From Bacilli bacterium (lineage in GTDB: Bacteria; Bacillota_I; Bacilli_A; RF39; UBA660), in assembly GCA_045627525.1 (NCBI GenBank), contig JAZQNW010000001.1, positions 120,270-184,269 of the forward strand: 64,000 nt of DNA, in the 5' to 3' direction. The notes beneath the pieces are model-generated. The model made no database searches. It was not told the DNA's origin and was given only the letters and a program-made list of their open reading frames with translations. A program made the position numbers and the translations under genes. The stretch's first letter is position 1. Each line of letters starts with the position of its first letter. Of the stretch, positions 3,886-60,577 are shown piece after piece.

Positions 3886-4587
3886 CTAAATCATTTCAGA
3901 AATATAAACTGTCTGATGATAGTCATCATTTTTTGTACAAGTAATTAAAGTTAGCGTTGTTTTTTCGTAGTTTCTAGCTATTTTTACAGTCCCTACTTTA
4001 TCAACATTATATTTGTTTACTAATTTATATTGATACTTATTACCACCATAAGTAACAAAAATATCATCACCTATATTTAATTTATATAAATAAGCAAAAA
4101 ACGAAATATAAGCATCACCAGAATGTGCAATTAAAATTAAATTTCCATTTACAACATCTGGCATTGTAGACCCACTAACCAAAGTCACATTGTACTGAAT
4201 ATTATTGTACTTTGAATCAAGACCGTAGAACCCTCTTTTTAATCCTATTTTTGGTATTTCTAATACTCCTAAATATTTATCATAATTAATAGTATATGTT
4301 TGTGCCGGTTCAGAAGGTTGAGGAGATTCCACTACATCATTAGCAACAGGAACCTCTTCAATTACTTCTTCTTTTTCTTCGACCGGTTCTTTAGTAGCAT
4401 CAGAAATTAATATTTGCATATCTGAAAACACAGAATTACGTAACATCAATAAATGATTACCAGTCAAAACAAAAACACCCACAAATACAAGCAAAGAGCC
4501 AAATAATAATATATGACTCTTTTTAATTTTATTTTTTTTAATTAGTTGCTTTTGGTTTAGCATTTGCATAAATAATACCAACACCAC
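3886..4587 (-). CDS. Sortase (class B/pilus-type-like cysteine transpeptidase)
   Basis: An N-terminal TM anchor is followed by a catalytic His region (LILIAHSG) and the TLITC cysteine motif (TLTLITCT). It lies immediately downstream of a VPDTG-motif surface protein. Confidence 0.8.
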   Translation of the reverse strand: MVLVLFMQMLNQKQLIKKNKIKKSHILLFGSLLVFVGVFVLTGNHLLMLRNSVFSDMQILISDATKEPVEEKEEVIEEVPVANDVVESPQPSEPAQTYTINYDKYLGVLEIPKIGLKRGFYGLDSKYNNIQYNVTLVSGSTMPDVVNGNLILIAHSGDAYISFFAYLYKLNIGDDIFVTYGGNKYQYKLVNKYNVDKVGTVKIARNYEKTTLTLITCTKNDDYHQTVYISEMI

Positions 4588-5758: not shown

Positions 5759-5818
5759 ATCATAACCTACCTTTACAAAATCATTATAACACAAATTATT
5801 TATTTTAAAACACTTTTT

Positions 5819-7045
5819 TTATTTTATTGTATAAATATTTTCAAAATTCTTTACGCCAGTTTTTCCATCTTTATAAATATAAGCTAAAATATCACCTTTT
5901 TTAACTTTATCACCAACTAATTTTTCAAGATAAATTCCTACACTATAATCAATAGAATCTTCCTTATTAATTCTTCCTGCCCCAAGTGACACTGATAATT
6001 TTCCTAACTCTAAAGCATCTATATTTTTTACAATTCCATCCTTAGTAGCCTTTATTTTATGAACTTTATCACAAACTTTAATTTTTTGAATATCACCATG
6101 TTGACAATTAACAAATTCTAAAAATTTATTATATGCAGATAAATTATCAATACTCTCAATTACCTGCTTTCTAGCAGCAAGTGGCGTTATTTTTTTACCC
6201 ATACTAACCATCTCTGAAGCAAGTTCTATACACAAATTATATAAATTAGAATGTTTTTCTTCACCCTTTAATATACTAATTGCTTCAACAACTTCAATTG
6301 AATTACCTATTGCTCTACCCAAAGGAACATTCATATCACTAATTATAGTTCTAACCTCACGATTATAAAATTTACCAATCTTTATCATCAACTTGCTTAA
6401 TTTTTTAGCATCTTCTTCCGTTTGTAATAATGCACCTTTTCCAACCTTAATATCAATTAATATTTTATCTGCACCTGATGCTATTTTTTTACTCATTATA
6501 CTGGAAGCAATTAAAGGAATAGAAGAAACTGTACCAGTTACATCTCGTAATGCATAAATTGCTTTATCCATAGGAGCTAAATCAGCAGTTTGTCCAGTAA
6601 CAACCATTCCAATTTTCTTTACTTGTTTTAAAACTTCCTTATCTGTTAAATCTATTTTAAATCCAGGAATACTTTCCAATTTATCAATTGTACCACCTGT
6701 ATATCCTAATCCTCTTCCACTCATTTTAACAACAGGAACTCCTAAACTAGCAACAATAGGAGCAATAATTAAAGTAGTTTTATCACCAACACCACCAGTA
6801 GAATGTTTATCTACTTTAATTCCTGGAATATCTGAAAAATCTAATATATCACCACTATCTATAAAAATCTTAGTAAGAGCATATATTTCTTCATTAGTCA
6901 TTCCATTTATACATATTGCCATTAACAAAGACGACATCTGATAATCCGTTACATTACCATCTAAATATCCATTAAAGAAAAAATCAAGTTCCTTATAATC
7001 AAGTTCTTTTCCTAATCTTTTTTTATTAATAATATCAACTATCAT
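5819..7045 (-). CDS. pdp: Pyrimidine-nucleoside (thymidine) phosphorylase
   Basis: Glycosyl-transferase family-3 motifs are present (HSTGGVGDKTTL and the phosphate-binding region), and the length is typical for Pdp/DeoA. Confidence 0.9.
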   Translation of the reverse strand: MIVDIINKKRLGKELDYKELDFFFNGYLDGNVTDYQMSSLLMAICINGMTNEEIYALTKIFIDSGDILDFSDIPGIKVDKHSTGGVGDKTTLIIAPIVASLGVPVVKMSGRGLGYTGGTIDKLESIPGFKIDLTDKEVLKQVKKIGMVVTGQTADLAPMDKAIYALRDVTGTVSSIPLIASSIMSKKIASGADKILIDIKVGKGALLQTEEDAKKLSKLMIKIGKFYNREVRTIISDMNVPLGRAIGNSIEVVEAISILKGEEKHSNLYNLCIELASEMVSMGKKITPLAARKQVIESIDNLSAYNKFLEFVNCQHGDIQKIKVCDKVHKIKATKDGIVKNIDALELGKLSVSLGAGRINKEDSIDYSVGIYLEKLVGDKVKKGDILAYIYKDGKTGVKNFENIYTIK

Positions 7046-7452
7046 TCCAACACCTTCCTATATATATCTGAATCTCTCATAACAAATCCACAAGATTCAT
7101 ATAAATGATGAGCCACTACGCGTTGCCTTCCAGACGTAAGTTCTAAATACATTGCATTCTCCTTTAAAGCCTCTTCTTCCGCATACATCATCATCTTTTT
7201 GCCTATTCCTTTATTCTGATATTTTGGATCAACGCAAACATAACCAACATTAAAATAATATTTACCCCGAACCACATCTAAAATCTTAGTCATAACAAAG
7301 TATCCACAGATTTTATCATTATAAATTGCAACATATTCAGAGCAATTATCATCTGGAACACAATTGACTTTACCATATCCAAAAACTGATTCTAAAATAT
7401 TATTAACAGCAAAATAATCAGTTATGTCATATTTTCTAATCATAGCATCCAT
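7042..7452 (-). CDS. GNAT-family N-acetyltransferase
   Basis: The acetyl-CoA binding motif (QNKGIGKKMM) is present. The gene is translationally coupled to pdp through a 4-nt overlap. Confidence 0.7.
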   Translation of the reverse strand: MDAMIRKYDITDYFAVNNILESVFGYGKVNCVPDDNCSEYVAIYNDKICGYFVMTKILDVVRGKYYFNVGYVCVDPKYQNKGIGKKMMMYAEEEALKENAMYLELTSGRQRVVAHHLYESCGFVMRDSDIYRKVLE

Positions 7453-8754: not shown

Positions 8755-9640
8755 TTATTTACAATATGGACAATTAGTACCTCGTACTCTATATCTTATT
8801 TCAGCTTCCCATTCATGTCCTTTATCACATTTCCACCATACTTTTTTATGTGATCCATTGGTAAACATTTGAGGAATCATTGTTTTATTTTTTTCATAAT
8901 TCCATTCTTTACATAAACTATAATTTGTTGTCATTAAATCGTTGTAACCAACTAATACTTTTTTGTTATTACAATATGGGCAATTAGTCCCACTTATTCT
9001 ATTATAAATAGTTGCTTCCCATTCATGTCCTTTACCACATTTCCACCATACTTTTTTTCCTGAACCACTTTTTAAATCAGTTGGTTTAAGGTTATTATTC
9101 TTCTCATAATTCCATTCTTTCAGTAACAAAGGATTTGTCGTTGCTAAATCATTAATACCTTTTATAGCAGATCTTCCTGAACAATATGGACAACTATTTC
9201 CGTGTGTTCTAGAGTTTATTGTTGCTTCCCATTCATGTCCTTTATTACATTTCCACCATACTTTAAAATTAGACGATTTAGTATAATTTTCTGGATTTTG
9301 ACTATTTTTTTCATAATTCCATTCTTCAATTAACTTAGCATTAGTTGTTCTCAAATCATTAAAACCAAATAGTACTTTTTTACCAGCGCAGTATGGACAA
9401 CCACTTCCTCTTGTCCTTGAAGATACAGTAGCTTCCCATTCATGCTTTTTATCACATTTCCACCAAACCTTAATATCAGATCCAGAATAAATACTCTCAG
9501 GCTTCAAATCTTTATTCTTTTCGTAATTCCATTCTTCTTTTAAATATGAATATTCAACTGCTACAGATTTTTTTTCTAATGCTAACATATAACTTGCTCT
9601 TATATTACTTTCCTCATTGTCTAAATCAAATTTTTTAGTT
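8755..9640. repeat. Intragenic tandem DNA repeats, about 207-210 bp period and 4-5 copies, encoding the zinc-ribbon modules
   Basis: The motif gcttcccattcatgtcctttatcacatttccaccatac recurs near 8804, 9014, 9224 and 9431. This matches the roughly 69-aa protein repeat (EWNYEKN...KVWWKC.KGHEWEA...CPYC). Confidence 0.7.
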
Positions 9641-10416
9641 AAAGGTATATAAGTTTCTAATTCATTAATTACTCTATAAATTTCGTCATTGTTTGGATGT
9701 CGTTTGATAGTTATATAAATATCAGCAGTATCTTTTTCCCCAAGATAGTTTTCTTTAACCCTTATTAGTTTTATTTCATTTTTTTTACAAATATCATATT
9801 TTTTCTTTTCTTTTATATATGAGTCAGTTCCATCATGCCATAGTTCTCCATCATATTCAATTCCTATTTGAAGAGATGGTATATAAATGTCAATTTCCAT
9901 TCCATTGTTAAATATATCATTATATCTATTTACTGTATCGGAATAATTCTTTCTTAAATAATAAAAAAGTACTTGTTCTGGATACGATGTTTGAGTTCTT
10001 TTGCTACAATTAGGACATCCAGTACTTAATGATTTATTATTTCTATTATGCGGAGTTGCTTGCCACTCATATCCGCAAACAGAACATTTCCACCAATATT
10101 TTTTTCCACTTCTTGGGGAAACTAAATCAGAAGATATTTCATTCTTTAGTTCATCAAATTCATTAGCCAATAAAGGATATAATGTTTTTAAATCATTAAC
10201 ACCTTTTATCGCTAATCGCCCAGAACAATAAGGACATTTATGGTTTATTCTTCTATTCACTTTTTGTTTCCAACTATGACCTTTTGTACATAACCACCAT
10301 ACTTCTTTTTCTGAACCAGTAGTCAATTTACTTAAATCGATATTATTATTTTTATTATAATCCCATTGGGACATTAATTCTTTATTGTCAGTAACAAACA
10401 TACTCAAGTTAATCAC
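8755..10416 (-). CDS. Multi-zinc-ribbon protein with a central Vsr/DUF559-like PD-(D/E)xK endonuclease core. Two zinc-ribbon modules lie N-terminal of the core and about five lie C-terminal.
   Basis: About seven repeats of W-x-C-x(2,3)-H-x-W...C-P-x-C (for example KVWWKCDKKHEWEATVSSRTRGSGCPYCAGK) form treble-clef-like zinc ribbons. The central segment MEIDIYIPSLQIGIEYDGELWH...NEIKLIRV matches the Vsr/DUF559 signature (D...IEvDG..H...hhRh). The start is non-ATG (GTG or TTG) or the internal ATG. Confidence 0.6.
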   Translation of the reverse strand: MINLSMFVTDNKELMSQWDYNKNNNIDLSKLTTGSEKEVWWLCTKGHSWKQKVNRRINHKCPYCSGRLAIKGVNDLKTLYPLLANEFDELKNEISSDLVSPRSGKKYWWKCSVCGYEWQATPHNRNNKSLSTGCPNCSKRTQTSYPEQVLFYYLRKNYSDTVNRYNDIFNNGMEIDIYIPSLQIGIEYDGELWHDGTDSYIKEKKKYDICKKNEIKLIRVKENYLGEKDTADIYITIKRHPNNDEIYRVINELETYIPLTKKFDLDNEESNIRASYMLALEKKSVAVEYSYLKEEWNYEKNKDLKPESIYSGSDIKVWWKCDKKHEWEATVSSRTRGSGCPYCAGKKVLFGFNDLRTTNAKLIEEWNYEKNSQNPENYTKSSNFKVWWKCNKGHEWEATINSRTHGNSCPYCSGRSAIKGINDLATTNPLLLKEWNYEKNNNLKPTDLKSGSGKKVWWKCGKGHEWEATIYNRISGTNCPYCNNKKVLVGYNDLMTTNYSLCKEWNYEKNKTMIPQMFTNGSHKKVWWKCDKGHEWEAEIRYRVRGTNCPYCK

Positions 10417-20703: not shown

Positions 20704-20735
20704 AAATTGACTAATAACTAGTCAATTTTTTTATA
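20704..20735. terminator. Bidirectional terminator between convergent prsA and the membrane protein gene
   Basis: Hairpin attgact-aataa-ctagtcaat followed by T-run. Confidence 0.6.
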
Positions 20736-22139
20736 TAATTCAAATTCTTTATGGCCATATATTAATTCATAATCTTTAGAATATTTCAAGTATGTTCTTA
20801 TTGGGTATTTATTAGAAACTAGGAAATAATCAAAATTATATTTATCAATAAGCTTTATATAATCATTGCTTAAAGTAGAAATATTTAAATAATCTCTATA
20901 ATTTAAATTGGTATATAAATCTGCCCTACCATCTATAAAAACATCAATATCATTATATATGAGTTCTCCACCATAATCATACATATTAAATAATTTTTTT
21001 ATAGAGGAATCTTTTATTATAGAAATTACTTCATCATTTAAATATCTCTTATTTAAATTTTTATGCACACGTTGCATACTACAACAAGATAGAATTATTA
21101 AAAGAATAGATAATAGAGATATAGCTAAAGTTATGTTAGAATCATCTTTTCGTTTATCAATATAATTAAAAATTATAAATGTACTTACTATATATGTATA
21201 TCCCCAAAAACGAATACTCTTTATTCCTAAAAAAGCACAAACACCAAAAAGTAATAAATCCATAAAATTAATTTTCTTTTTACTAAACAACATTATAAAA
21301 AATATAAATATAAGAAAAGCATAATAAACATATCCAGATAAACTAGTTAAAGTTGTCGGTTGCCATTCTGAAATATTTTTAATCATAACTGTATCAGACA
21401 TATTAGAATATGGATATATAAACATTTTAAATCCATGAATATTAATACATACAGCAATCATACAAAGAATCATTACTATAAAATATTTTTTTAATTGTAA
21501 TTTACTTATTCTTTCAACTTCAATTTTACTAAATTTAAAAGAAAATAAACCACCAATTATAAACAATAAGCAAAATAAATAACTTAAATTACTAGAACCA
21601 CCATGAACATTAGCCCATACTACTGTAATTATAGGTAAAAAATAAATCTTTTTTGAATTTTCATTATTATACAAATCGTATAAAAACCAAATAGTCAAAG
21701 CTAACAAATTAAAACTAATAAGATGTGGTCTAGCTTGCATAAAAGGCATTAATATAAAAGAACATAAAATCCATACTAACGAAAAAGGTACGTTCTTAAA
21801 AAAATTATTTTTATTACTAAAAAACAATATTAACAATAAAATAAAAATACAAACAAATCCATAAATAATAATATGATATGATTTAAAAACTATTGATAAA
21901 GAATAAATAATAATTTCAAATAGCCACTCATGAGACATCCAGTATTTTCCTCTAGCAAACCATGAAAAAACATCTTTCTTTGTTATACCATTATTAAACA
22001 TATATTCTCCAGTTTTAATATGCCAAAAATAATCACTTTCACGAAATAAAAAAACTAGACAAAATAATGATATAGATAACAATAACAGTAAAAATGATAA
22101 TACTTTTTTATTCTTATTAATAAATTCTTTAATCTTCAT
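20718..22139 (-). CDS. Polytopic membrane protein (10 or more TM), possibly a GT-C-type glycosyltransferase or YfhO-like protein
   Basis: Hydrophobicity is the main evidence. It has a soluble C-terminal domain. The start is probably the internal ATG (MKIKEFINKNKK), which overlaps the recX stop by 11 nt. Confidence 0.4.
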   Translation of the reverse strand: MKIKEFINKNKKVLSFLLLLLSISLFCLVFLFRESDYFWHIKTGEYMFNNGITKKDVFSWFARGKYWMSHEWLFEIIIYSLSIVFKSYHIIIYGFVCIFILLLILFFSNKNNFFKNVPFSLVWILCSFILMPFMQARPHLISFNLLALTIWFLYDLYNNENSKKIYFLPIITVVWANVHGGSSNLSYLFCLLFIIGGLFSFKFSKIEVERISKLQLKKYFIVMILCMIAVCINIHGFKMFIYPYSNMSDTVMIKNISEWQPTTLTSLSGYVYYAFLIFIFFIMLFSKKKINFMDLLLFGVCAFLGIKSIRFWGYTYIVSTFIIFNYIDKRKDDSNITLAISLLSILLIILSCCSMQRVHKNLNKRYLNDEVISIIKDSSIKKLFNMYDYGGELIYNDIDVFIDGRADLYTNLNYRDYLNISTLSNDYIKLIDKYNFDYFLVSNKYPIRTYLKYSKDYELIYGHKEFELYKKID

Positions 22140-22881
22140 AATACAAACCTTTTTGATATAATTTTTCTTTAATTTTGTATTCCAATTCCTTACCAGAATA
22201 TTTAGAACTAAGCTTTTTATACAATTTATTATATTCCCTTTCAATCATCTCTTTATCATTTTTAAATGTGTATGTATCTATAATAGAATTAATAATACTA
22301 TATTCATATCCCAAAGTAATTAAATCACTAATTATTTTATTTTTTAACACCACACCACCTCTAGTATGATTACTTTTTATAGATTTATTAATAATTTTAT
22401 TAATTTTTTCTATTTGTATATCCTTATCAAAAGCACCTATTTCATCTTCTATTATATCAGAATCAACACCTTTATCATGCAATTCCTTTACTATTCTATA
22501 AGGTCCTCTAGATGTGGTAATTATTTGATTTTGAATATAACTTTTAGTAAAAATTCTATCATCTAAATATTTTTTATTTTTTAATTCATCTATAGCAAAA
22601 TCAATATATTCTAAAGGATATTCTTTTTTAACTAAATAATTTTTCATCTCTTTAATACTCTTAGCCCTAGAGTTTAATGATTTTAAAGCTACATAAAATA
22701 CATCCCATTTATTATTTAATTCTACAACTTTATTTAATAAAGTATCATTAACCTCATGATTTATTGTGAGTTGAAAAAAAATTATAACTTGATCATAAAC
22801 TTCTAAATCATTTCCAGAATCAAAAATAATTTTATAACGATCAGTTTTAGTTTTTCTTAATCCAACTATTTTCAAAAACAT
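22129..22881 (-). CDS. recX: RecA regulator RecX
   Basis: The repeated helical modules carry the YLDDRIFTKSYIQN..GPYRIVKELHDKGV signature, which is RecX-like (YLDDARFAESYVRS...GP.RIRQEL.QKGI). Confidence 0.65.
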   Translation of the reverse strand: MFLKIVGLRKTKTDRYKIIFDSGNDLEVYDQVIIFFQLTINHEVNDTLLNKVVELNNKWDVFYVALKSLNSRAKSIKEMKNYLVKKEYPLEYIDFAIDELKNKKYLDDRIFTKSYIQNQIITTSRGPYRIVKELHDKGVDSDIIEDEIGAFDKDIQIEKINKIINKSIKSNHTRGGVVLKNKIISDLITLGYEYSIINSIIDTYTFKNDKEMIEREYNKLYKKLSSKYSGKELEYKIKEKLYQKGLYYED

Positions 22882-23243: not shown

Positions 23244-23585
23244 TTATCTAAAATTACAGCATGAACCACATTGAACATTACTTACTGTGTTTTCTTCTGA
23301 ACAAGAATACTCAGGTCTATAAGTATGTTTATAAACATGGTGATTTATTATTCTAGTGTGAATCGGACAAACATGTGGTACTTCATGAACAATAGTCTTA
23401 TGAACCACTTTTTCTTGTACTGCTTCACTAACTGGATTCATCATCTGACCGCCTTGCATATTTTGAGTAGAATAATTCATCATATTAATATCAACATTCA
23501 TGTCATTATCAATAACATTATTGTTACCAATTACAGAAGAATCAAAGTCAAAATTAGGCATATTAGTCATACCTTGATCAAACAT
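23244..23585 (-). CDS. CotD-like inner spore coat protein (His/Pro-rich, C-terminal Cys cluster)
   Basis: It has VHxxxVHxxPHxCPxHT-type spacing and a C-terminal CGSCC, which resembles Bacillus CotD. The N-terminal Met/Asn/Gln-rich region is low complexity. Confidence 0.45.
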   Translation of the reverse strand: MFDQGMTNMPNFDFDSSVIGNNNVIDNDMNVDINMMNYSTQNMQGGQMMNPVSEAVQEKVVHKTIVHEVPHVCPIHTRIINHHVYKHTYRPEYSCSEENTVSNVQCGSCCNFR

Positions 23586-23656: not shown

Positions 23657-24973
23657 TTAAAATGGTAATTTCATATTACCGCTTGTCATTTGTTTCATCA
23701 TTTTTTTCATTTGGTCAAATTGTTGAAGTAACTTATTTACTTCTTGAACTGAAGTACCACTTCCCGAAGCAATTCTTGTCTTACGACTAGCCTTAATTAT
23801 CTCAGGATGTCTTCTTTCTTGTGGAGTCATAGATAATACTATAGCTTCTATATGAGCCAAATCTTTAGGATTTACTTTTACATTTGTAAGTCCCATCTTT
23901 TTTGCTCCAGGAATCAGTTTTATTAAATTTTCTAATGGTCCTAATTTTTTCATTTGTTTCATAGTAGATAAAAAATCTTCTAAATCAAATTTTCCTTGTT
24001 GCATCTTTTTTGCTGTCTTTTCAGCTTCTTTTTCATCTATAGCTTCTGTTGCTTTTTCAACTAAAGAAACTATGTCACCCATTCCCAAAATTCTACCAGC
24101 TGTTCGTTCAGGATCAAAATAATCTAATCCATCCATCTTTTCTGAAGTACCAATAAATTTAATAGGAACATTTGTTAAATGTCTAACAGATAAAGCTACA
24201 CCACCTCTAGTATCTCCATCTAATTTAGTTAAAATAACACCAGTAAGTGGTAATTTATCATTAAAACCAGTAATAACATTTATAGCATCTTGCCCCATCA
24301 TAGCGTCAATTACTAATAATATTTCATCAGGATTGATAGTATCCTTAATATTTATTAATTCATTCATTAATTCTTCATCAATATGCAATCTACCAGCTGT
24401 ATCTATTAAAACATAATCATTACCATTATCTTTAGCATAATTAATAGCATTAGTACTTATTTCTACAGGGTTTTTCTTTCCCTCTTCATAAACTTCAATA
24501 TTTAATTGCTTTCCTAATTGTTTTAATTGATCAATAGCCGCTGGTCTATAAACATCACATGCAACTAATAATGGCTTTTTAGCACGCTTCTTTCTTAAAA
24601 AATTAGCAAGTTTAGCTATACTTGTAGTTTTTCCTGATCCTTGCAAACCAACTAACATTAAAGTAGCTGGATTTCCTTTTAAATTCAATGGAGCATTTTC
24701 TCCACCAAGCAAGTTTACTAATTCATCTTTTACTATTTTAACAAACAAATCACCAGGATTAATGCTACTAGCAACTTCTTCACCTAAAGCTTTTTCCTTA
24801 ACAGTATTTGTAAATTCTTTAACAACTTTATAATTAACATCCGCTTCTAATAAGGCTAGTCTTATTTCCCTCATCATATCAGAAATATTTTCTTCTGTTA
24901 TTTTCCCATAGCCTTTAATTTTATGCAAAGCGTTTTGTAATCTATCTCCTAAACTTTCAAACATTTTCATCAC
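23657..24973 (-). CDS. ffh: Signal recognition particle protein Ffh (SRP54)
   Basis: N, G and M domains are present: GLQGSGKTT, DTAGR, and a Met-rich C-terminal M domain. Confidence 0.95.
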   Translation of the reverse strand: MMKMFESLGDRLQNALHKIKGYGKITEENISDMMREIRLALLEADVNYKVVKEFTNTVKEKALGEEVASSINPGDLFVKIVKDELVNLLGGENAPLNLKGNPATLMLVGLQGSGKTTSIAKLANFLRKKRAKKPLLVACDVYRPAAIDQLKQLGKQLNIEVYEEGKKNPVEISTNAINYAKDNGNDYVLIDTAGRLHIDEELMNELINIKDTINPDEILLVIDAMMGQDAINVITGFNDKLPLTGVILTKLDGDTRGGVALSVRHLTNVPIKFIGTSEKMDGLDYFDPERTAGRILGMGDIVSLVEKATEAIDEKEAEKTAKKMQQGKFDLEDFLSTMKQMKKLGPLENLIKLIPGAKKMGLTNVKVNPKDLAHIEAIVLSMTPQERRHPEIIKASRKTRIASGSGTSVQEVNKLLQQFDQMKKMMKQMTSGNMKLPF

Positions 24974-24984
24974 CTATTAATAAT

Positions 24985-25030
24985 TATAACAAAAGAAAAT
25001 AATAATACCAATAAAAAAATAGCATTATAA
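24985..25030 (-). terminator. Terminator after the HerA-like gene (upstream of the ffh promoter)
   Basis: Hairpin atagcatt-ataa-atgctat followed by T-run on minus strand. Confidence 0.55.
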
Positions 25031-25037
25031 ATGCTAT

Positions 25038-27575
25038 TTAATTAACTATTGTTACTAATGGTGTACCAGAATCAGTTCTTGGAATTGTAGAATTAGATCC
25101 ACCACTTCCTCCAAAAAATGAATTACCACTATTATCACCATCACTATTTGATTCATTTAAATTAGGCGGAACAATTCGCACTGTTCCATAATCATCATCC
25201 TTTTTGTTAACATCTACTGTTGGAACTACTGCTGTTTGATTAGCAGCAATATCTAAAGAACTTGGTATTGTAAAAGAATTTTGTGGAACTATTCCAGCTC
25301 TTTCATCTTCACTAGTAGTTGTAAAATCAGGTATAGCTGATTGCAAATTTACATTATCCATTGGAAATCCACCAACAGGTAGTGAAAAATTATTATTGAT
25401 ACCATTTAAAATATCATCAGTAAATGAGTTAGTATTTGACATCATATTTATTTTATTTAAATCAGCAACTCCTAAACCTGTAGTAACATTTGAATTATTT
25501 AAATTATTATTCACAGGAATATTATTGTTTTGAATATTACTACTATTATTCATTTCACTAGGTGGTTGTGGAATTGACAAAATAGCATCATTACTATTTT
25601 CTAAGAATGGATTTTTAGGAATATTATTCATCGAATTCACAGTAGGCACTGATGAAGTATTAGTTTGCTGTATAAAAGCAGGCTGTTGAGTAGGCATAGA
25701 AATAGGTGCAGATTGTTGAACTGGCATAGTACTAGGAATAGATGATTGAGGCATAGAATTAGAATTTACACTATTAGTATTACCTCCACTAGTATTAACA
25801 CTACCATTACCATTCCAAATAGATACAACATCACAGTTTCCACTCCAAGGAGCAGGATCTGGCATTTCCATTTTTACTATCAATGGTATTCTAAAAGCCA
25901 TACCAAAGCCTAAACAAGTACCAGCTTGTAAAGTTTTTTGCTTTTCAACTATTTCATCACTGATATTTGGAACCATCTTTCGAATATAATCAACATCAAC
26001 TGGATGGTTCATTTTAAATATTAAGAAATTTGAACATTGAGATATAACAGTATCAGAAAGTTCTACTGGTCTCTGAGAAATAAGTCCCAAAATAACACCA
26101 TATTTACGTCCTTCTTTAGCAATTCTTTCAAACACATTATATCCAATTAAAAATCTATCTGTATCATTTTGAATATATCTATGAGCTTCCTCAACTATAA
26201 TATGAAAAGGTATACTAGCTCTATTTGGTAAAGCCTTAGAAAATTCAAATATCAATCTTGAATAAATTTTAGTAATAACTTTTGCAAAATCATCATCTAC
26301 ATCATCTAAATTTATATTAATAATTTGATATTTATTATTATTACTAATTAACATAGATGATAAATAAGATTCTAATGTAATATATTCAGGATAATCAAAG
26401 AATTTTGCATTTTCACCAACAATTAGTGAATGCAATCTAACTTTAATAGTAACAGCATCACCATAAGTATTTTCATTTCTTAACCATCCTTCACTAATTA
26501 AAGTAAAGTTTAAAGCTTTTTCTAATGTATCTAAATCAAAATACACTCCACCTTTAGGCTCATAATTATCATATTCTGCTTTAATAAAAGATGAAACATA
26601 CTCAGTTAATAAAACACTTTCGGAAAATTGACCTTGATTATCAATTAAAAAACATTCTCTAAATTTTCTTGTATATCCAATTCCTTGCACTGGAGCTTCT
26701 AAATTAAACTGTTGAGTAGAACAACTTGCTAAAATTGAAAAAATCTCATTTCTCTTATTAGGAGAAGTTTCATTAGTATAAAGAATAGTCATAATTGCCT
26801 TAGCAATTAAATGATTTTTATAATTTTCAGCATCCATGTCTTTTTGAGAAAATATCAATGCTAGTTTCAACATTCTTTCAATTATAGGTAATTGTGAATG
26901 GTTAGTAACTTGTAACAATAAAGCAAGATCATCTACATTTAATAAAAAGATTGGAAGTCTTAATTTTTCAGCATTTGTACCAACTTCATTAGTACTATAA
27001 AAACGATAATGATAATTGGAATTTATACTATTCAAATTACTAAAGGCATTATAATATTCACCAGAAGAGTCAAACATTATAATATTGGCTTTATATGGGA
27101 AAAGTCTTTGATCATGAAACATATTTTGAAATAATCTAGAAATACCACAACTCTTACCAGAACCACTATTACCAAAAATGGCAAAATGATTACTGAAAAA
27201 ATTATTTACATCTAAAAACACGGGATAATCATTATAAAACGGACTAACCCCAAGTTTCATATATCCTTGAGCATCTTGACCAGTAATTAAAGGAACTTCA
27301 CTCTGATCTATTACTCTAACTTTAGCATCCAAAGATGGTTTACGTATAACCCCGCCCATCAATTTACCATTTACGATTTCACCTAAAAATCTAATTTTTA
27401 CAATGTCACCATCTAAATCATCTACTTCACCCAAAATTTTCTTCAAATTATCTTCAAAAATAACATGAAGATTCATTAAGTTGATAGTAACATTAGTTCC
27501 TTCAACTAATTTAACATTAGCAGAATGGTCACTTATATAAATTATTCTATCAAACATAAAAAAAGCCCCTTCCAT
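25038..27575 (-). CDS. HerA-type ATPase of the FtsK/HerA P-loop superfamily (DUF87-like). It has an N-terminal HAS-barrel and a roughly 280-aa disordered Asn/Ser/Pro/Gln-rich C-terminal tail.
   Basis: Walker A is FAIFGNSGSGKS. Walker B (DEAH-type) is HIIVEEAHRY. The arginine-finger region is ILGLISQRPVELSDTVISQCSNFLIFKMNHPVD, matching the HerA signature. The N-terminal beta-barrel region is VKLVEGTNV...GDIVKIRFLGEI. The low-complexity tail starts near residue 565. Confidence 0.7.
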   Translation of the reverse strand: MEGAFFMFDRIIYISDHSANVKLVEGTNVTINLMNLHVIFEDNLKKILGEVDDLDGDIVKIRFLGEIVNGKLMGGVIRKPSLDAKVRVIDQSEVPLITGQDAQGYMKLGVSPFYNDYPVFLDVNNFFSNHFAIFGNSGSGKSCGISRLFQNMFHDQRLFPYKANIIMFDSSGEYYNAFSNLNSINSNYHYRFYSTNEVGTNAEKLRLPIFLLNVDDLALLLQVTNHSQLPIIERMLKLALIFSQKDMDAENYKNHLIAKAIMTILYTNETSPNKRNEIFSILASCSTQQFNLEAPVQGIGYTRKFRECFLIDNQGQFSESVLLTEYVSSFIKAEYDNYEPKGGVYFDLDTLEKALNFTLISEGWLRNENTYGDAVTIKVRLHSLIVGENAKFFDYPEYITLESYLSSMLISNNNKYQIININLDDVDDDFAKVITKIYSRLIFEFSKALPNRASIPFHIIVEEAHRYIQNDTDRFLIGYNVFERIAKEGRKYGVILGLISQRPVELSDTVISQCSNFLIFKMNHPVDVDYIRKMVPNISDEIVEKQKTLQAGTCLGFGMAFRIPLIVKMEMPDPAPWSGNCDVVSIWNGNGSVNTSGGNTNSVNSNSMPQSSIPSTMPVQQSAPISMPTQQPAFIQQTNTSSVPTVNSMNNIPKNPFLENSNDAILSIPQPPSEMNNSSNIQNNNIPVNNNLNNSNVTTGLGVADLNKINMMSNTNSFTDDILNGINNNFSLPVGGFPMDNVNLQSAIPDFTTTSEDERAGIVPQNSFTIPSSLDIAANQTAVVPTVDVNKKDDDYGTVRIVPPNLNESNSDGDNSGNSFFGGSGGSNSTIPRTDSGTPLVTIVN

Positions 27576-27595
27576 TCTTTCCCTATCTTAATATG

Positions 27596-27624
27596 ATTAT
27601 ACAAATAAATTAATAATTTTACAA
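27596..27624 (-). promoter_or_regulatory. Sigma-A-like promoter of the HerA-like gene
   Basis: On the minus strand the sequence is TTGTAA, a 17-nt spacer, then TATAAT. It lies between the ylxM terminator and the HerA-like start. Confidence 0.5.
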
Positions 27625-27625
27625 G

Positions 27626-27658
27626 AAAAAAAGATAAGAATATTTAAATCTTATCTAA
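27626..27658 (-). terminator. Terminator after ylxM
   Basis: Hairpin agataagat-ttaaata-ttcttatct plus T-run on minus strand. Confidence 0.55.
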
Positions 27659-27662
27659 ACTA

Positions 27663-27959
27663 CTAATATAATAAATCAGTTAAATTTGATTTTAATTTTT
27701 CATCTTGAATATTTTCAATTATTTCATTAAGAATTTTGCTTTTTTCTCTCAACTTAAGTATAGATTCATAATAATTTAATTTATCAGTAACGTTTTTAAC
27801 CTGCTTATGTATAGCATTTCTACTTACACCATAATTTTCTGCCATCTCACTAAGACTTAAATTGTTAAAATAATAATTTTCAAAATACTCTTTTTGTTTA
27901 TATGTAAGTAATTCACCATACAAATCATATAATTCAGTAAAATAAATAACTTCTTCCAT
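27663..27959 (-). CDS. ylxM: YlxM/UPF0122 putative DNA-binding protein (ffh-operon partner)
   Basis: ELYDLYGELLTYKQKEYFENYYFNNLSLSEMAENYGVSRNAIHKQV matches the YlxM consensus (LfDFYg.LLT.KQ...elYY.dDLSL.EIAE...VSRQAV). Confidence 0.8.
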   Translation of the reverse strand: MEEVIYFTELYDLYGELLTYKQKEYFENYYFNNLSLSEMAENYGVSRNAIHKQVKNVTDKLNYYESILKLREKSKILNEIIENIQDEKLKSNLTDLLY

Positions 27960-27961
27960 AA

Positions 27962-28216
27962 TTAGCTCCTCATAATTCCAACTACATCAAGTGCTATTAA
28001 AAATATACCTATCAATATATATATAATTGTAACTATATTTTTTTTATAAAACAATTGATTATTTACAGCCATTATAAACAAGTCTATGCCTAAAATTAAT
28101 TCTAAAAATATCCATAAATCTCTATTAACTAAAAAAGCTATAAATAAAAATATTGTAAAAATCGTTAGTATTAGTTGGCTCATACTAAAAATTTCTTTTA
28201 ATTTTTTATGTTTCAT
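27962..28216 (-). CDS. Small 2-TM membrane protein, hypothetical
   Basis: Two hydrophobic helices; between ftsY and ylxM. Confidence 0.35.
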   Translation of the reverse strand: MKHKKLKEIFSMSQLILTIFTIFLFIAFLVNRDLWIFLELILGIDLFIMAVNNQLFYKKNIVTIIYILIGIFLIALDVVGIMRS

Positions 28217-28225
28217 CTAAATCAC

Positions 28226-29272
28226 CTACAATAAATCTTTGAATAAACCATAAATATATTTTTCAATATCAAAAACCTGTAAATCTTCCTTAGCTTCACC
28301 TAAACCAATAAATTTAACTGGTAATCCTACATTTTCTTTTATTGCAAGCACAATTCCACCTTTAGCAGTACCATCAAGTTTTGTTAAAACTATTCCTGTA
28401 ATATCAGTTATTTCTTTAAATGCTTTAGCTTGGCTTATTCCGTTTTGACCAGTAGTAGCATCTATTATTAGTAAAGTTTCATGTGGACCATTTTCAACTT
28501 GTGCACTAATTACTTTATTTATTTTTTCTAATTCATTCATTAAATTTACTTTATTTTGTAATCTACCAGCAGTGTCTATTAATACAACATCATAATTATC
28601 ATCCTTAGCTTTTGCCAAACCATCAAAAACAACACTAGCTGGATCACTATCATCTTTGCCATAAAACCCAACATCTATTTTTTTGCTCCACTCTTCTAAC
28701 TGTTTTACAGCACCTGCTCTAAATGTATCAGCTCCAACTAATAAAACCTTTTTTCCTTCATTCTTCATATTCCAAGCTAATTTTCCGATAGTAGTAGTTT
28801 TACCAACACCATTTACACCAACTACTAGAATAACTGTTGGAGATTCTTTTGAATAATTAATTTTACTAGATAGAACTTCATCATTAACATAAATTATAAA
28901 TAATTCATCAACAATTATTTCTTTAAGATCATCAGGATTTTCTATAGATTCTTTTTTTACACGATCCTTCAATCTATCAACAAAATCCATTACAGTATTA
29001 ACACCTATGTCAGCCATTATAAGTATTTCTTCTAACTCTTCAAAATATTCTTCATTTATTTTTTTATATTTATTAGTAAGATTAGCAAGTTTCGAAACAA
29101 AGTCATGTCTAGATTTAGTTAAACCTTTTTCATAAACTTTTACGCTTTTTTTATCATTCTCTGATAATTTTACACCATCGTTTTTATTATCTATAGACTT
29201 TTCGTTTTTTTCAATGTCTTTTTCTAAAGATGCATCTTTAAACATATTTTTAATTTTACTAAACAATCCCAT
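28226..29272 (-). CDS. ftsY: SRP receptor FtsY
   Basis: The NG domain is present (GVNGVGKTTTIGKLA, DTAGR, TKLDGTAKGG). The probable start is MGLFSKIKNMF with RBS agaggtga. Confidence 0.95.
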   Translation of the reverse strand: MGLFSKIKNMFKDASLEKDIEKNEKSIDNKNDGVKLSENDKKSVKVYEKGLTKSRHDFVSKLANLTNKYKKINEEYFEELEEILIMADIGVNTVMDFVDRLKDRVKKESIENPDDLKEIIVDELFIIYVNDEVLSSKINYSKESPTVILVVGVNGVGKTTTIGKLAWNMKNEGKKVLLVGADTFRAGAVKQLEEWSKKIDVGFYGKDDSDPASVVFDGLAKAKDDNYDVVLIDTAGRLQNKVNLMNELEKINKVISAQVENGPHETLLIIDATTGQNGISQAKAFKEITDITGIVLTKLDGTAKGGIVLAIKENVGLPVKFIGLGEAKEDLQVFDIEKYIYGLFKDLL

Positions 29273-29420
29273 ACTATCACCTCTATTTACAATATAGTTA
29301 TTTTTATTGAAAAACTTTTCTAGTTCAAACAATCAAAACTATCAAATTTATTGTATCAAAATGTCAAATTAAAGTCTACTAAATAGATATGTAAAATAAA
29401 AAATACTAACTAAAGAAAAG

Positions 29421-31167: not shown

Positions 31168-31192
31168 TTAATTATCTCTTTTTTAATTGAAA
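31160..31192. terminator. Terminator after rnj
   Basis: Hairpin agagataatt-aattatctct followed by TTTTTT. Confidence 0.6.
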
Positions 31193-31543
31193 ATATAAAT
31201 CATTTTTTATTGCTAAAACAAAATTTTGATAATCACATTGAGTAAATAAAGCCAACTGAAAATAAAACATTCTCTCCCATTTAGAATCAACTTTAATTAA
31301 TTCTAAATAATACTCCCATTTTAAACTATTTAATTTATCATAAAAAATAGGAAAACATAAATAAAATTGTTGCATTGAATAAATATTAATTCTATCAAAA
31401 CAATCTGTAACACCAAAATAGTATTGATAATACTCCGAATATTTTTTAATAGAGTTAGAATACTTATTCTGATTTAAAAATACTTTTTTTCCTATATTCC
31501 AAAATATAAATAGTCGATTTTTATTGTTTAATATTTTAATCAC
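31172..31543 (-). CDS. Hypothetical 123-aa protein
   Basis: ORF only; Tyr/Phe-rich, no motifs. Confidence 0.3.
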   Translation of the reverse strand: MIKILNNKNRLFIFWNIGKKVFLNQNKYSNSIKKYSEYYQYYFGVTDCFDRINIYSMQQFYLCFPIFYDKLNSLKWEYYLELIKVDSKWERMFYFQLALFTQCDYQNFVLAIKNDLYFQLKKR

Positions 31544-37017: not shown

Positions 37018-37395
37018 AATAAACAATAAATATAAATAAGCCATGTTCTGTTCCTAGTAAACTAGGCGACAAACATTTATCTACTAATTTCTTAGTCCCT
37101 AACTCCATTCATTTTTTTTGTTAGGACTCCCCTACCAAATTTGGGTTTCTCGCTCGCGGGGTTTACCACGTTTCACTCTTTCGTTTCCAAAAGCATCGTC
37201 ACTGCGGCACTTTACAGTATAAATCATATCAAAAAGACTTAGATTTATTAACCGCCGTTAGTAAAAACTACCCTAGGTTATTTTTTCCCTAGGCACGATC
37301 ACTACAGACATCTCAGTCTGTGCGAGCATGGACTTTCCTCAAGGATCTCAAGAATCCCAGCGTTTGTCTATATATTAATTGTTATTATCTCTTCT
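37018..37395 (-). ncRNA. rnpB: RNase P RNA, bacterial type B
   Basis: The minus strand contains GAGGAAAGUCCAUGCUCGCAC (P4 5' strand), ...GUGAAACGUGGUAAACCCCGCGAGCGAGAAACCCAAAUUUGGUAGGGGA... and ...AACAGAACAUGGCUUA, nearly identical to the B. subtilis rnpB conserved regions. The GC-rich island lies between gpsB and rodZ as in Bacillus. Ends are uncertain by about 20 nt. The 5' region probably overlaps the gpsB stop. Confidence 0.85.
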
Positions 37396-38008: not shown

Positions 38009-38575
38009 ATGAATTATCCAAATGGTATAAAAAAAGAAAAAAATAATGAAATAACATTTGGTAATAGAGGTATGGCCTTAGAAAATGATCTAAATCTAAC
38101 CAACGAATATTATCGTGAAATAGATAAAGCAATCATATATAAAAAACCAACCCCTATAAAAATTACAAAAGTAAACTATCCATCGCGAGACAAAGCTGTA
38201 ATAAAAGAAGCATTTTTTACAGTACCATCTACTACAGACTATAATGGAATATATAAAGGTAAATATATTGATTTTGAAGCAAAAGAAACAAAAAATAAAA
38301 CTTCTTTTTCTTTAAGTAACATACATGTTCATCAAATAAATCATTTAAAAAATATATATAAACACAATGGTATATCATTTATAATAGTCAGATTTAGTAG
38401 TTTAAACGAAACTTATTTATTAATGGCACAAGATTTAATAAATTTTATTAACGAAACATCAAGAAAATCTATACCATTATCTTTCTTTAAAGAAAAAGCT
38501 TATCTCATAAAAGAAGGATACATTCCTAGAATAGATTATTTAAAAATAATTGATCAAATAATTGGAGGGGTCTAA
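38009..38575 (+). CDS. recU: Holliday junction resolvase RecU
   Basis: It has RecU-family length and motifs (GMALENDLNLTNEYY...DFEAKET) and is in the recU-ponA operon arrangement. The start is MNYPNG after AGGTGA. Confidence 0.8.
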   Translation: MNYPNGIKKEKNNEITFGNRGMALENDLNLTNEYYREIDKAIIYKKPTPIKITKVNYPSRDKAVIKEAFFTVPSTTDYNGIYKGKYIDFEAKETKNKTSFSLSNIHVHQINHLKNIYKHNGISFIIVRFSSLNETYLLMAQDLINFINETSRKSIPLSFFKEKAYLIKEGYIPRIDYLKIIDQIIGGV

Positions 38576-38576
38576 T

Positions 38577-41498
38577 ATGGCAAAAAAAGAAATAAAAAAA
38601 AGAATACCTGTTTCTAAAGGTAATACAAAAAAAACAACACAAATAAATAATAGAAATAATCAAAAAGTAAAGAAAAGAATACCACAAAAAAATTCAAAGG
38701 CTAATCAAAAAGAAAAAACTATTTGTCTAATATCATATATATTATTAGTAATATTAACTACAGTAACATTAGGAATTTTCTTTGGTTTATTTGTTGCTTT
38801 AGGTATAGCAATAATAGTTGGTGTATCTAAATTAATAAAAAAAGCAAACTCAGACAAAAGTAAAAAAAGTATATTAAAAACTATTTTGATAATAATACTA
38901 AGTCTTGGAGTTTTAGGATTAGTTTTATTTAGTGGATTTATTGTTATTGTAAAAGTAAAAGCTGATTTGCTATACAAAGGAAACGAAGAAAAGCTAAATA
39001 CACCTGAAAACACAACATTCCTAGATAGCAATGGTGAAGAATATGCCAAATTAGGTAGTGAAATGCGTGAAAAAGTTACTTATGATCAACTTCCAGAAGT
39101 ATTAGTTGACGCTATCGTTGCTACTGAAGATTCAAGATTTTTTCAACATAATGGATTTGATGCCCCACGTTTTTCAAAAGCTATTATAGGACACCTTGCA
39201 GGTAAATCAAATGCTGGTGGAGCTTCAACATTAACAATGCAAGTTGTTAAAAATACTTTCACTGATGCTAGCGCATCACATGGTATTAAAGGTGGAATAA
39301 GAAAAGCTGAAGATATTTACCTAGCAATATTTAAAGTTGAAAAAAACTTTACAAAACAACAAATAATTGAATTTTATGTAAACAACCACTATTTAGGTGG
39401 AAATATATATGGTGTAGAAGAAGCTGCTAATGCTTACTTTGGTAAAAGCGTAAGCGAATTAAACTTAAGTGAAGCTGCTATCTTAGCTGGTATGTTTAAA
39501 TCTCCAGTCACTTATAGACCTACAGCATATCCAGAAAATGCTGCTAAGCGTAGAAAAACTGTTTTATATTTAATGAGAAGACATGGATATATAACAAAAG
39601 AAGAAGAAGCTTTAGCAAATAGTATTCCTGTAGAATCATTAGTTAGTAATGGAACAACAGGAACATCAAGTGAATATCAAGGATATATTGATACAGTTGT
39701 TGAAGAAATAAAAGATAGATGGGGAATAAATGCCTATACTACTCCACTTCTTGTATATACTAATTTAGATCGTTCAAGACAAAATGCAGTAAATAGCGTA
39801 ATGAATGGTGAAAGTTATTCATGGATAAATGACAAAGTTCAATCAGGAGTTGCAGTTATTGATACTGAAACAGGAAAAATTTTAGCAATTGGTAATGGTC
39901 GTAACGTTAATGGTAGAACCGCTGATAACATTAATCAATTTAATTATGCTACCAGTATAAAAAGACAACCCGGATCATCTGCTAAACCACTATTTGACTA
40001 TGCCCCAGGTATAGAATACAATAACTGGTCAACATATACGCAATTTGTAGATGGACCATACACATATTCAAATGGACATTCAATAAAAAACTGGGATGGT
40101 GGATATTATGGACAAATATCTTTAAGAAGAGCACTATCTACATCACGTAATATTCCAGCATTAAAAGCATTCCAACAAGTTGATAATGCAAAAATAAGAG
40201 ATTTCGTTGCAAGACTTGGAATACATCCAGAAGTATGCTCAACAGGATATACATATAAACAATTAAAAGATGGAACACTTACTTGTGTTAATAATAATAA
40301 ACCTAGTGATACTGAAGATCCTAGTAATGTTCATGAAGCACACTCAATTGGAGCCTTTACTGGTACTAATCCAGTAGAAATGGCAGCTGCATATTCTGCA
40401 TTCTCAAATGGTGGAACATATCATGAGCCAACTACTATATCTAAAATAATAAATAAAGGATCAAATGAAGAACTAAAATTAGATTTAATAGTAAATGAAA
40501 ATGTTATGGGTGAAGATACAGCATTCATGATATCAAGTGTTTTACAAGATGTTAACTTAAATGGTGGAAATCCACAATATGTAGCACGTAAAACAGGAAC
40601 TACAAACTATGATGATAACACAATGGCAAAAAACCATTTACCTGGAGATGCCATTAGAGATTCATGGATAGTTGGATACTCTAGTAAAACGGCAATAGCT
40701 GTTTGGTATGGATATGACTTTATAGATAGTGAATATTGCTTGCATAACATTCCAGCAACTATTCAAAAAGATAAAATATTCAATGCTCTAATAAATGCTG
40801 GAGCAATGGAACATAACAGAACACCATTTAAACAACCTGATAGTGTTGTCAAAGTTGGAGTAATAGCAGGATCTGAAACACCTAAATTAGCACCTAGTGG
40901 ATATACTGGAACAATAACATATGAATATTTCAAAAAAAATTATCAACCAACTGAAACATACACAAATGAAAAATTAGGAAAAGTAGATAATTTTAATGCA
41001 AGTTATTTAAATAAAAAGGTTTACTTAAAATGGAATGGTCTAAATAACAACGGATATGATTCAATTACATATTATATTTATCATGATTCAACATTAATCG
41101 GTAAAACAGAATCAACTTCTTATACATACACACCTACTGGTAGCCCATATGGAACATATAAAGTTGTGGCTAATGCTTATAAAGATGGTAATTTATTAGA
41201 AGGAACACCTGCAACACAAACAATAAAAGATAATAATTCCGCTCCTGAACAAGAAGAAAAAGATAATTTAACACTAACTTATAGTGGACCAACGATTATC
41301 CCAGAAAGTGGATCACTTGAACTATCAACATCAGATTTCACTGTTAAAAACAATAATTCACCTGTATCAGCAACACTTAATTCTTGTACACCATCTACAA
41401 TTGATACAGCCATTAGAAAAGTAATAGTATGTAATGTAAAATATAAAAACCAAACATATAACTTATCAACTACTATAGAATTTAAAAGAAATGAATAA
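38577..41498 (+). CDS. ponA: Bifunctional class A penicillin-binding protein PBP1A (glycosyltransferase plus transpeptidase) with an extra C-terminal domain
   Basis: The GT51 motif is EDSRFFQHNGFD. The transpeptidase motifs SxxK, SxN and KTG (RKTGTT) are present. It has an N-terminal TM and a strong RBS ggagggg. Confidence 0.9.
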   Translation: MAKKEIKKRIPVSKGNTKKTTQINNRNNQKVKKRIPQKNSKANQKEKTICLISYILLVILTTVTLGIFFGLFVALGIAIIVGVSKLIKKANSDKSKKSILKTILIIILSLGVLGLVLFSGFIVIVKVKADLLYKGNEEKLNTPENTTFLDSNGEEYAKLGSEMREKVTYDQLPEVLVDAIVATEDSRFFQHNGFDAPRFSKAIIGHLAGKSNAGGASTLTMQVVKNTFTDASASHGIKGGIRKAEDIYLAIFKVEKNFTKQQIIEFYVNNHYLGGNIYGVEEAANAYFGKSVSELNLSEAAILAGMFKSPVTYRPTAYPENAAKRRKTVLYLMRRHGYITKEEEALANSIPVESLVSNGTTGTSSEYQGYIDTVVEEIKDRWGINAYTTPLLVYTNLDRSRQNAVNSVMNGESYSWINDKVQSGVAVIDTETGKILAIGNGRNVNGRTADNINQFNYATSIKRQPGSSAKPLFDYAPGIEYNNWSTYTQFVDGPYTYSNGHSIKNWDGGYYGQISLRRALSTSRNIPALKAFQQVDNAKIRDFVARLGIHPEVCSTGYTYKQLKDGTLTCVNNNKPSDTEDPSNVHEAHSIGAFTGTNPVEMAAAYSAFSNGGTYHEPTTISKIINKGSNEELKLDLIVNENVMGEDTAFMISSVLQDVNLNGGNPQYVARKTGTTNYDDNTMAKNHLPGDAIRDSWIVGYSSKTAIAVWYGYDFIDSEYCLHNIPATIQKDKIFNALINAGAMEHNRTPFKQPDSVVKVGVIAGSETPKLAPSGYTGTITYEYFKKNYQPTETYTNEKLGKVDNFNASYLNKKVYLKWNGLNNNGYDSITYYIYHDSTLIGKTESTSYTYTPTGSPYGTYKVVANAYKDGNLLEGTPATQTIKDNNSAPEQEEKDNLTLTYSGPTIIPESGSLELSTSDFTVKNNNSPVSATLNSCTPSTIDTAIRKVIVCNVKYKNQTYNLSTTIEFKRNE

Positions 41499-60570: not shown

Positions 60571-60577
60571 TAAAAAT

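Follow-up and report, generated by a model that had tools for sequence, protein, structure and literature searches.

The stretch of DNA analysed here (the window; 64,000 nucleotides of contig JAZQNW010000001.1 from a Bacilli bacterium) encodes on its minus strand a HerA-type ATPase, whose gene, herA, lies between ylxM and ffh. On balance, we favour the reading that its product is a housekeeping HerA motor outside defence, vertically inherited and carrying a tail composed of a linker and a docking peptide. The comparisons presented here show a solo HerA that, judged by its sequence relationships, has been inherited vertically and constrained like ffh in uncultured gut Bacilli. This evolutionary pattern is clear, and unusual for a bacterial HerA. 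HerA proteins of bacteria have so far been seen mainly as subunits of the SIR2-HerA and DUF4297-HerA anti-phage systems or as partners of NurA; a partner-less clade that resides in core operons under ffh-like constraint argues for a cellular, non-defence role of the ring. The motor is the same as in the known HerA family, and what is new is its genomic logic and its linker-plus-peptide tail; its function we infer.

Gene model and ATPase core

The coding sequence is recognized as HerA-like by its homologues and by Pfam, PADLOC and PDB comparisons. Its open reading frame (ORF) runs uninterrupted over 25038..27575 (845 amino acids, aa). The true start is most likely the ATG at 27557, giving a gene of 25038..27557 (839 aa plus stop), because the homologues begin with MFDR and a conserved GGAAGGGG Shine-Dalgarno sequence, located 8 nucleotides (nt) upstream and between the two in-frame ATGs, precedes it. 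The alternative upstream ATG at 27575 would add MEGAFF, a stretch that is more likely the Shine-Dalgarno region. Residue numbers for motifs and tail follow the 845-aa version, and all coordinates refer to the minus strand unless marked (+).

The assignment to the HerA family made in an earlier note on this DNA, from the letters alone, is borne out by Pfam, PADLOC and PDB matches. The match to Pfam DUF87 (PF01935, the central domain of HerA) has a score of 73.7 bits (cutoff 23.2), and the best-matching family of hidden Markov models, the PADLOC HerA model PDLC04102, reaches 375 bits over residues 99-589; nine other PADLOC HerA models score 117-218 bits. All PDB sequence matches are HerA proteins, namely 9c1m, 8xau (DUF4297-HerA), 8ziq, 8wiv, 8j4u (SIR2-HerA) and archaeal 4d2i, with E-values down to 1e-42 for the single sequence and 1.8e-66 for a 40-member family profile. 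Alignment thus supports, and in our view confirms, a genuine HerA/DUF87 ATPase with intact catalytic motifs.

Three motifs are invariant across 40 diverse family members: Walker A GNSGSGKS (27150..27173; residues 135-142), in which K141 aligns with K157 of 8xau, Walker B HIIVEEAH (26181..26204; residues 458-465), and EGRKYG (26097..26114; residues 488-493). The SQRP...SQCSNF block (26025..26078; SQRP at 500-503, SQCSNF at 512-517) is conserved as well. In 8xau HerA, K157 is the Walker A lysine and R455/K456 form the trans-acting arginine finger (R-finger) (PMC11291478). The earlier note had looked for this finger in the SQRP block; since EGRKYG is the motif that aligns with R455/K456, the predicted trans-acting R-finger moves to R490/K491.

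The N-terminal residues 8-88 (27312..27554) are modelled entirely as beta-strand and represent a probable HAS-type beta-barrel. They are the only part of the AlphaFold2 (AF2) model, built from an 11-sequence alignment of close homologues, that reaches a predicted local distance difference test score (pLDDT) of 70-80, the mean being 34.9. A second, profile-based homologue search returned relatives only at at least 78% identity, nearly all at 84-89%. In profile alignments with HerA structures, the first aligned residue falls at 44-52.

Distribution, synteny and selection

Homology searches returned thousands of proteins, the best 120 of which share 79-89% core identity with the window protein, are 709-942 aa long and come from gut metagenomes. 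Species-representative genomes were scanned with a family profile, and the best 80 loci were taken. All derive from uncultured metagenome-assembled genomes (MAGs), mostly labelled Bacilli, Tenericutes, Mycoplasmatota or Bacillota; examples of hosts among the loci are Ca. Onthousia, Ca. Coprosoma, Coprobacillus sp. CAG:605 and Firmicutes CAG:321. These hosts are prevalent uncultured gut Bacilli and some variants occur on hundreds of contigs, which makes the gene a marker of their core biology. Neighbourhoods were compared over 86 loci (1.29 Mb in total), including six metagenome loci, L001-L006, and in all 86 of these loci from uncultured Bacilli MAGs the herA gene is solo.

Gene order on the minus strand of the window is ftsY (28226..29332), an 84-aa ORF with two transmembrane segments (2-TM; 27962..28216), ylxM (UPF0122; 27663..27959, in a conserved position directly upstream of herA), herA, ffh (23657..24973), a 113-aa His/Cys-rich ORF, rpoZ and recX. 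Neighbours were identified by Pfam or NCBIfam, recX instead by the RecX Pfam domains of its orthologues, and the 2-TM protein has no match in Pfam or NCBIfam. The earlier note had taken herA for an insertion peculiar to this genome that breaks the ftsY-ylxM-ffh locus. The comparison overturns this view: ftsY-(2-TM)-ylxM stands directly upstream of herA in 29/29 loci with at least 57% core identity, L001-L006 among them (in one of the 29, only the 2-TM ORF was seen in the ylxM position), and ffh is the next downstream gene in 13. A census of the ylxM-ffh interval, as proposed in the earlier note, thus shows herA to be recurrent there.

Below 55% identity, herA lies elsewhere, in the interval from gatCAB to tcdA-gpsA-rarA-xer, after yqeG-yqeH or before sepF-divIVA. 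Each genomic context corresponds to one clade in a neighbour-joining (NJ) tree of HerA, and this match therefore indicates vertical inheritance. Clustering of the neighbours across the 86 loci revealed no partner common to all clades, no nuclease and no SIR2.

Selection on the core resembles that on ffh. In comparisons with L001 and L004, the ratio of nonsynonymous to synonymous substitution rates (dN/dS) is 0.04-0.08 for the HerA core, 0.04-0.06 for ffh, 0.08-0.17 for ftsY and 0.18-0.24 for ylxM, and core amino-acid identity is 88-89% versus 90% for Ffh. Against the more distant L008 all genes give higher values (HerA core 0.14, ffh 0.10, tail ~1.2). These ratios are approximate because dS is ~1, near saturation, while their ranking is clear.

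The gene is not one of mobile elements: among plasmids, the best relatives of the window core are at most 31% identical and SIR2-linked, and a plasmid search with ffh DNA found nothing. A phage search gave no HerA relative, its single match being a terminase P-loop. The earlier note treated the gene as a novelty; homologues with the same locus and tail proved common and conserved, but none has been characterized, and the source databases annotate family members merely as 'DUF87 domain-containing protein'. In literature searches on HerA with ylxM and on DUF87, Firmicutes and FtsK, neither a solo HerA of the core genome nor any connection with ylxM turned up.

Relation to defence HerA proteins

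The next-closest HerA group emerged from a metagenome scan with alignment A4 (80 loci) and is 30-35% identical to the window core; the same kind of scan with P0135 as single query found nothing. SIR2 lies directly upstream of HerA in 78/80 of these loci, and the other two have insufficient upstream DNA. Likewise, the best plasmid relatives of the window core and of P0153, a protein of the PDLC04102 type, are located directly downstream of 'SIR2 family protein' genes (see L087, L088). Solo and SIR2-linked HerA separate with NJ bootstrap support of 100/100, with identities of at least 36% (mean 48%) among solo proteins and at most 40% (mean 33%) between solo proteins and others. By this phylogeny, the solo subfamily and the HerA subunits of SIR2-HerA are shown to be sister groups.

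The HerA of SIR2-HerA (PDLC04102 type; 8j4u/8su9; Paenibacillus sp. 453MF, PMC11472057) thus represents the nearest sister clade, 30-40% identical to solo HerA, with Walker A, Walker B and R-finger common to both. Their contexts differ. In SIR2-HerA the SIR2 gene is adjacent and usually overlaps the start of herA, whereas the upstream gene in the window is ylxM; solo HerA has no SIR2 gene in the window or at any of the 86 loci, resides in core operons and, in the window's subclade, carries a tail of ~255 aa. Searched by tblastn with two SIR2 proteins, neither the window nor the 86 related loci gave a match. The solved SIR2-HerA complex has SIR2 docked on the beta-barrels of HerA, and defence requires the two proteins together (PMC11472057). 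The N-terminal 40-80 residues of solo and SIR2-linked proteins do not align, a mismatch that would fit loss or absence of the SIR2 interface.

The best PDB matches are to the HerA of DUF4297-HerA (8xau, 9c1m; PMC11291478; E 1e-42 to 1e-66), with catalytic residues aligned. In contrast to that system, the window herA has no adjacent DUF4297 (Cap4-like) nuclease gene, and the middle region of its product, residues ~232-418, remains unaligned. Overall, no adjacent SIR2, nuclease or conjugation gene was found among the herA neighbours in the window, and no FtsK or HerA paralogue among the window proteins within 64 kb. The earlier observation that SIR2, DUF4297, NurA and conjugation partners are missing next to herA therefore holds, as judged by Pfam neighbours and the SIR2 search.

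The clade exemplifies in nature one of two things, an immune motor that was domesticated or the housekeeping protein from which such a motor arose. Under the former reading, which we put forward tentatively, a defence HerA would have lost SIR2 and been taken over by the cell as a core and possibly essential factor for the chromosome or the cell cycle, with one abundant subclade evolving an FtsZ/SSB-like hub; paralogues are located beside sepF-divIVA and in the operon of the signal recognition particle (SRP).

A continuing anti-phage role, with an effector encoded elsewhere or recruited through the C-terminal peptide, is unlikely. It would account for the fact that the closest characterized relatives are all defence HerAs and that the sister group is SIR2-linked, and an effector might be recruited in trans through the tail. 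However, SIR2-HerA defence needs both genes (PMC11472057) and 1.29 Mb of related DNA holds no SIR2, while the position of herA is fixed in core operons of many species, in clade-coherent contexts, with a core dN/dS equal to that of ffh. The NCBIfam anti-phage HerA equivalogs are also both missed (NF042944, 166.7 bits against a cutoff of 850; NF042943, 143.6 against 800), and at ~365 bits the window's subfamily attains half the PDLC04102 score of true members (740-800 bits).

Transcription of herA and the SRP operon

The earlier note described herA as a gene with its own promoter, bracketed by terminators, and orthologous spacers uphold this. A sigma-A-like promoter, TTGTAA-17-TATAAT, lies at 27596..27624. 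Promoter-like sites in the region occur at about the frequency expected by chance (49 found versus 42.5 expected), so the match alone means nothing. When the ylxM-herA spacers of eight species are aligned, however, the -35 CTTG, the -10 TATAAT and an ATAG leader element are invariant, and the remaining spacer is variable (mean column identity 54%). The leader (27566..27586), comprising an ATAGGG element and the GGAAGGGG Shine-Dalgarno sequence, is conserved in orthologous spacers. Between the -10 and the Shine-Dalgarno sequence, an ATAGGG(T/A)A element (27577..27586) is present in 7/8 species; it may mark where transcription starts or serve as a regulatory site.

A terminator scan of the region that demands at least 3 G-C pairs found none, because AT-rich stems fall below its G-C threshold. 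Inspection and folding identified two terminator-like AT-rich hairpins. The first (AGATAAGA/TCTTATCT), followed by a T-run, lies after ylxM (27625..27656; -7.1 kcal/mol for 27656..27632), and the second (ATAGCAT/ATGCTAT), followed by T7, lies after herA (25012..25037; -7.9 kcal/mol for 25037..25019). Similar hairpins recur in 7/7 herA-ffh spacers and in most ylxM-herA spacers examined. Given the invariant promoter and the recurring hairpins, comparative data confirm herA as a predicted transcription unit of its own in the window's clade; ffh, for its part, has the promoter TTGGTA-17-TATAAT at 25011..24983.

This insulation bears on a rather improbable alternative in which HerA is an accessory ATPase of SRP and membrane targeting, working with YlxM, Ffh and FtsY on proteins or ribonucleoproteins instead of DNA. 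The FtsK-HerA superfamily does include protein-secretion ATPases, e.g. VirB4 and EssC, and herA follows ylxM in the 29 loci with at least 57% identity. YlxM itself, an accessory protein of SRP, binds both Ffh and small cytoplasmic RNA (scRNA) (PMC8546722). The best argument for such a role comes from the tail-less species (57-65% identity), where the ylxM-herA gap is only 2-22 nt; this implies co-transcription and suggests co-translation and co-regulation. Yet other clades keep herA in unrelated contexts (sepF-divIVA, yqeG-yqeH, gatCAB/rarA), hairpins and its own promoter insulate it from ylxM and ffh in the window's clade, and the relatives with solved structures are all nucleic-acid-associated HerAs.

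Comparison with archaeal HerA and FtsK motors

Equally improbable is a helicase for double-strand break (DSB) resection, like archaeal and Deinococcus HerA, that would act with an unlinked NurA-like nuclease. The catalytic core is the same as in archaeal HerA, structures of which match at E ~1e-43 (3.8e-43 for 4d2i, of HerA-NurA, with the family profile), and the NCBIfam models for DSB-repair HerA match weakly. Archaeal HerA is nevertheless more distant from the window HerA than the bacterial defence HerAs are, with NCBIfam scores of 91-107 bits against cutoffs of 800-970. No adjacent or operonic NurA gene was found in the window or the 86 loci, and a nuclease gene is adjacent in 0/86. The recA, recX, rarA and xer genes lie near herA in several contexts, but the proximity of recA and recX is ordinary Firmicute synteny. 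In part, this alternative overlaps with the housekeeping role favoured here, as both are directed at DNA.

FtsK, SpoIIIE and SftA are ring motors of the same FtsK-HerA superfamily, and Escherichia coli FtsK has a long Pro/Gln-rich linker. No FtsK structure matches the window HerA at E <=1e-3, and its sequence does not place it in the FtsK type with PHLLVAGxTGSGKS. Four distant members of the family (L053, L067, L075 and L079) have genes of the FtsK/SpoIIIE type (PHLLVAGxTGSGKSVCIN) no more than 8 kb away from herA. HerA as a replacement for FtsK/SpoIIIE is excluded by these co-existing ORFs, and the window HerA is therefore neither FtsK nor its substitute. At L075 the gene order is ftsK - M16 peptidases - herA - sepF - divIVA - dnaE. 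The conjugative coupling or VirB4 type fares no better, with TrwB_AAD_bind at 16.5 bits, below its cutoff of 20.5, and no conjugation genes nearby.

C-terminal tail

Downstream of W587, the last conserved core residue, a low-complexity, N/S/P/T-rich and acidic tail is encoded at 25041..25814. The tail recognized in the earlier note is present and probably disordered, judging from its composition, but at ~255-258 aa (~258 as mapped) it is shorter than the ~280 aa given there. It consists of 17% N, 14% S, 9% P and 9% T, with charged and hydrophobic residues scarce and a net charge of -13, and N/S/P/Q/T/G make up 60% of it versus 32% of the core. An origin as tandem-repeat DNA was rejected, the tail-coding sequence being without tandem repeats. 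GC skew is +0.15 over tail-coding DNA (25250..25749) as against -0.2 to -0.4 in the surrounding minus-strand genes; the codon composition that an N/S/P/T-rich tail entails is the probable cause.

The tail evolves fast. Compared with orthologues L001 and L004, its dN/dS is 0.4-0.7 with dozens of indel columns, and tail lengths among orthologues range from 82 to 423 aa. A long tail (total protein length 674-1010 aa) together with a separate promoter is confined to the subclade with at least 76% core identity; the tail is absent from sister species (57-65% identity) and most of the family. The conservation that the earlier note left to be checked thus applies to the C-terminal peptide, which is kept, and not to the long tail as a whole. 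This peptide, IPRTDSGTPLVTIVN (25041..25085; consensus P-x-TD-x-G-x-PL-[VI]-x-[LI]), is the sole tail element at least 80% conserved across 40 non-redundant tails, and none of the remaining ORFs in the 1.29 Mb of related DNA contains its TDxGxPL[VI] motif.

Close relatives share additional islands, IPxNPFLE, TDDxL, GGYSLDN..VQSALPDF, YGxVRIxPP and the C-terminus. Two of the corresponding subclade motifs in the window are GGFPMDNVNLQSAIPDF (25323..25373), whose PDF is nearly invariant among close relatives, and IPKNPFLE (25599..25622). More distant tailed members (L010, P0122) repeat a related motif, x-L-[VI]-x-[LF], up to ~10 times; in L010 (gene at 4072..7104), whose tail is 423 aa long, there are ~10 copies of x-L-V-[SN]-[FL]-N. 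The P0121 tail contains three copies of EHNPALDFG, and the tails of L011, L013 and P0121 end in an acidic run plus DF(A/D), endings that recall the acidic tips of SSB.

A flexible linker ending in a docking motif would fit this pattern. FtsZ and SSB present docking peptides at the end of a disordered linker, and they, too, combine a variable, fast-evolving linker with a short conserved terminal peptide. The likeness is one of analogy and not homology: their folds are unrelated to that of the herA product, and the resemblance is organizational only. As to the identity of the tail motifs, neither the beta-clamp motif (QLxLF) nor the FtsZ C-terminal peptide fits in hydrophobic spacing and charge, and both comparisons are no more than leads. 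IPxNPFLE loosely resembles the latter, a weak lead, and the single FtsZ found in the related loci (L075, 989..2122) ends in ...DTPSFLRPNY.

The earlier note had proposed a prion-like tail with phase separation or coat association, for which the analysis gave no support. A core followed by a fast-evolving linker and a conserved terminal peptide instead argues for partner tethering over prion-like aggregation, the tail being nearly neutral and its conserved part the C-terminal peptide; we infer that this peptide may tether the ring to a partner in the cell. It is very improbable that HerA is a scaffold specific to sporulation, or a factor that phase-separates, with its N-rich tail as a prion-like domain, for although the genome encodes SpoIVA, a small weakly CotD-like protein follows ffh and the tail is 17% Asn, the promoter is conserved and sigma-A-like, sister species and most of the family lack the tail, which is nearly neutral except for its terminal peptide, and Asn-rich low complexity is expected at a genomic GC content of ~27%.

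Proposed role

In the housekeeping model that we favour, the HerA product would form a hexameric ring that uses ATP to translocate on or remodel nucleic acid, most likely double-stranded DNA, and would serve chromosome maintenance instead of defence. In the window's subclade, herA would have become an independent transcription unit and gained a disordered linker of ~255 aa, at whose end the C-terminal TDxGxPL[VI]x[LI] would bring the ring to a partner, or a partner onto the ring. The peptide thereby offers an experimental handle toward that partner and the pathway.

Several points weigh against this model. Substrate and housekeeping role are drawn from family membership and evolutionary behaviour alone, and the contexts differ between clades so that no single pathway is indicated. 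The AF2 model is poor (mean pLDDT 34.9) and so lends no independent support to a fold for the middle region, to a hexamer or to tail disorder, and an effector gene could sit elsewhere in the genome, the window being 64 kb. One MAG, SIG199 (SVAJ01), contains two paralogues, L008 and L086, and functions may be split between such copies. L008 is tailed, lies in the SRP operon and is 82% identical to the window protein; L086 is 44% identical and lies directly upstream of sepF-divIVA. The window genome, too, may hold a second herA copy outside the 64 kb.

Other features of the window

Two small proteins accompany the SRP genes. The 2-TM protein has homologues (cluster C4) at the equivalent position in 12 related loci but none in L001-L006; the protein goes with the ftsY-ylxM pair and not with HerA of other contexts. 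The 113-aa His/Cys-rich protein (23244..23585) lies directly after ffh, in the slot of rpsP in B. subtilis-like genomes, and is kept downstream of ffh in ~10 related loci. It has a sub-threshold match to the spore-coat protein CotD (17.4 bits against a cutoff of 22).

The window also encodes SpoIVA (47679..49154 (+)), EzrA (54068..55783) and a class A penicillin-binding protein (38562..41498 (+)). Their presence indicates a walled endospore-former, despite the deposition of close relatives as 'Mycoplasmatota' or 'Tenericutes' MAGs, and SpoIVA agrees with the earlier description of a sporulating organism. A 553-aa protein (8755..10416) contains six DUF4379 treble-clef zinc-finger repeats (E 1.4e-115). 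Next to recX, a 508-aa, apparently multi-TM protein (20718..22244) has no Pfam match; its ORF extends ~115 nt into the 3' end of recX, and the start has therefore probably been annotated too far upstream. An ORF of ~120 aa (31172..31543; L001 4366..4725), which relatives also keep between rny and the gene for RNase J, comprises only an N-terminal DUF1016 (YhcG-like) domain and may be a truncated nuclease remnant. At gathering threshold, the Rfam matches in the window are just RNase P RNA class B (37032..37376; 287 bits) and a T-box leader (60386..60571; 101 bits).

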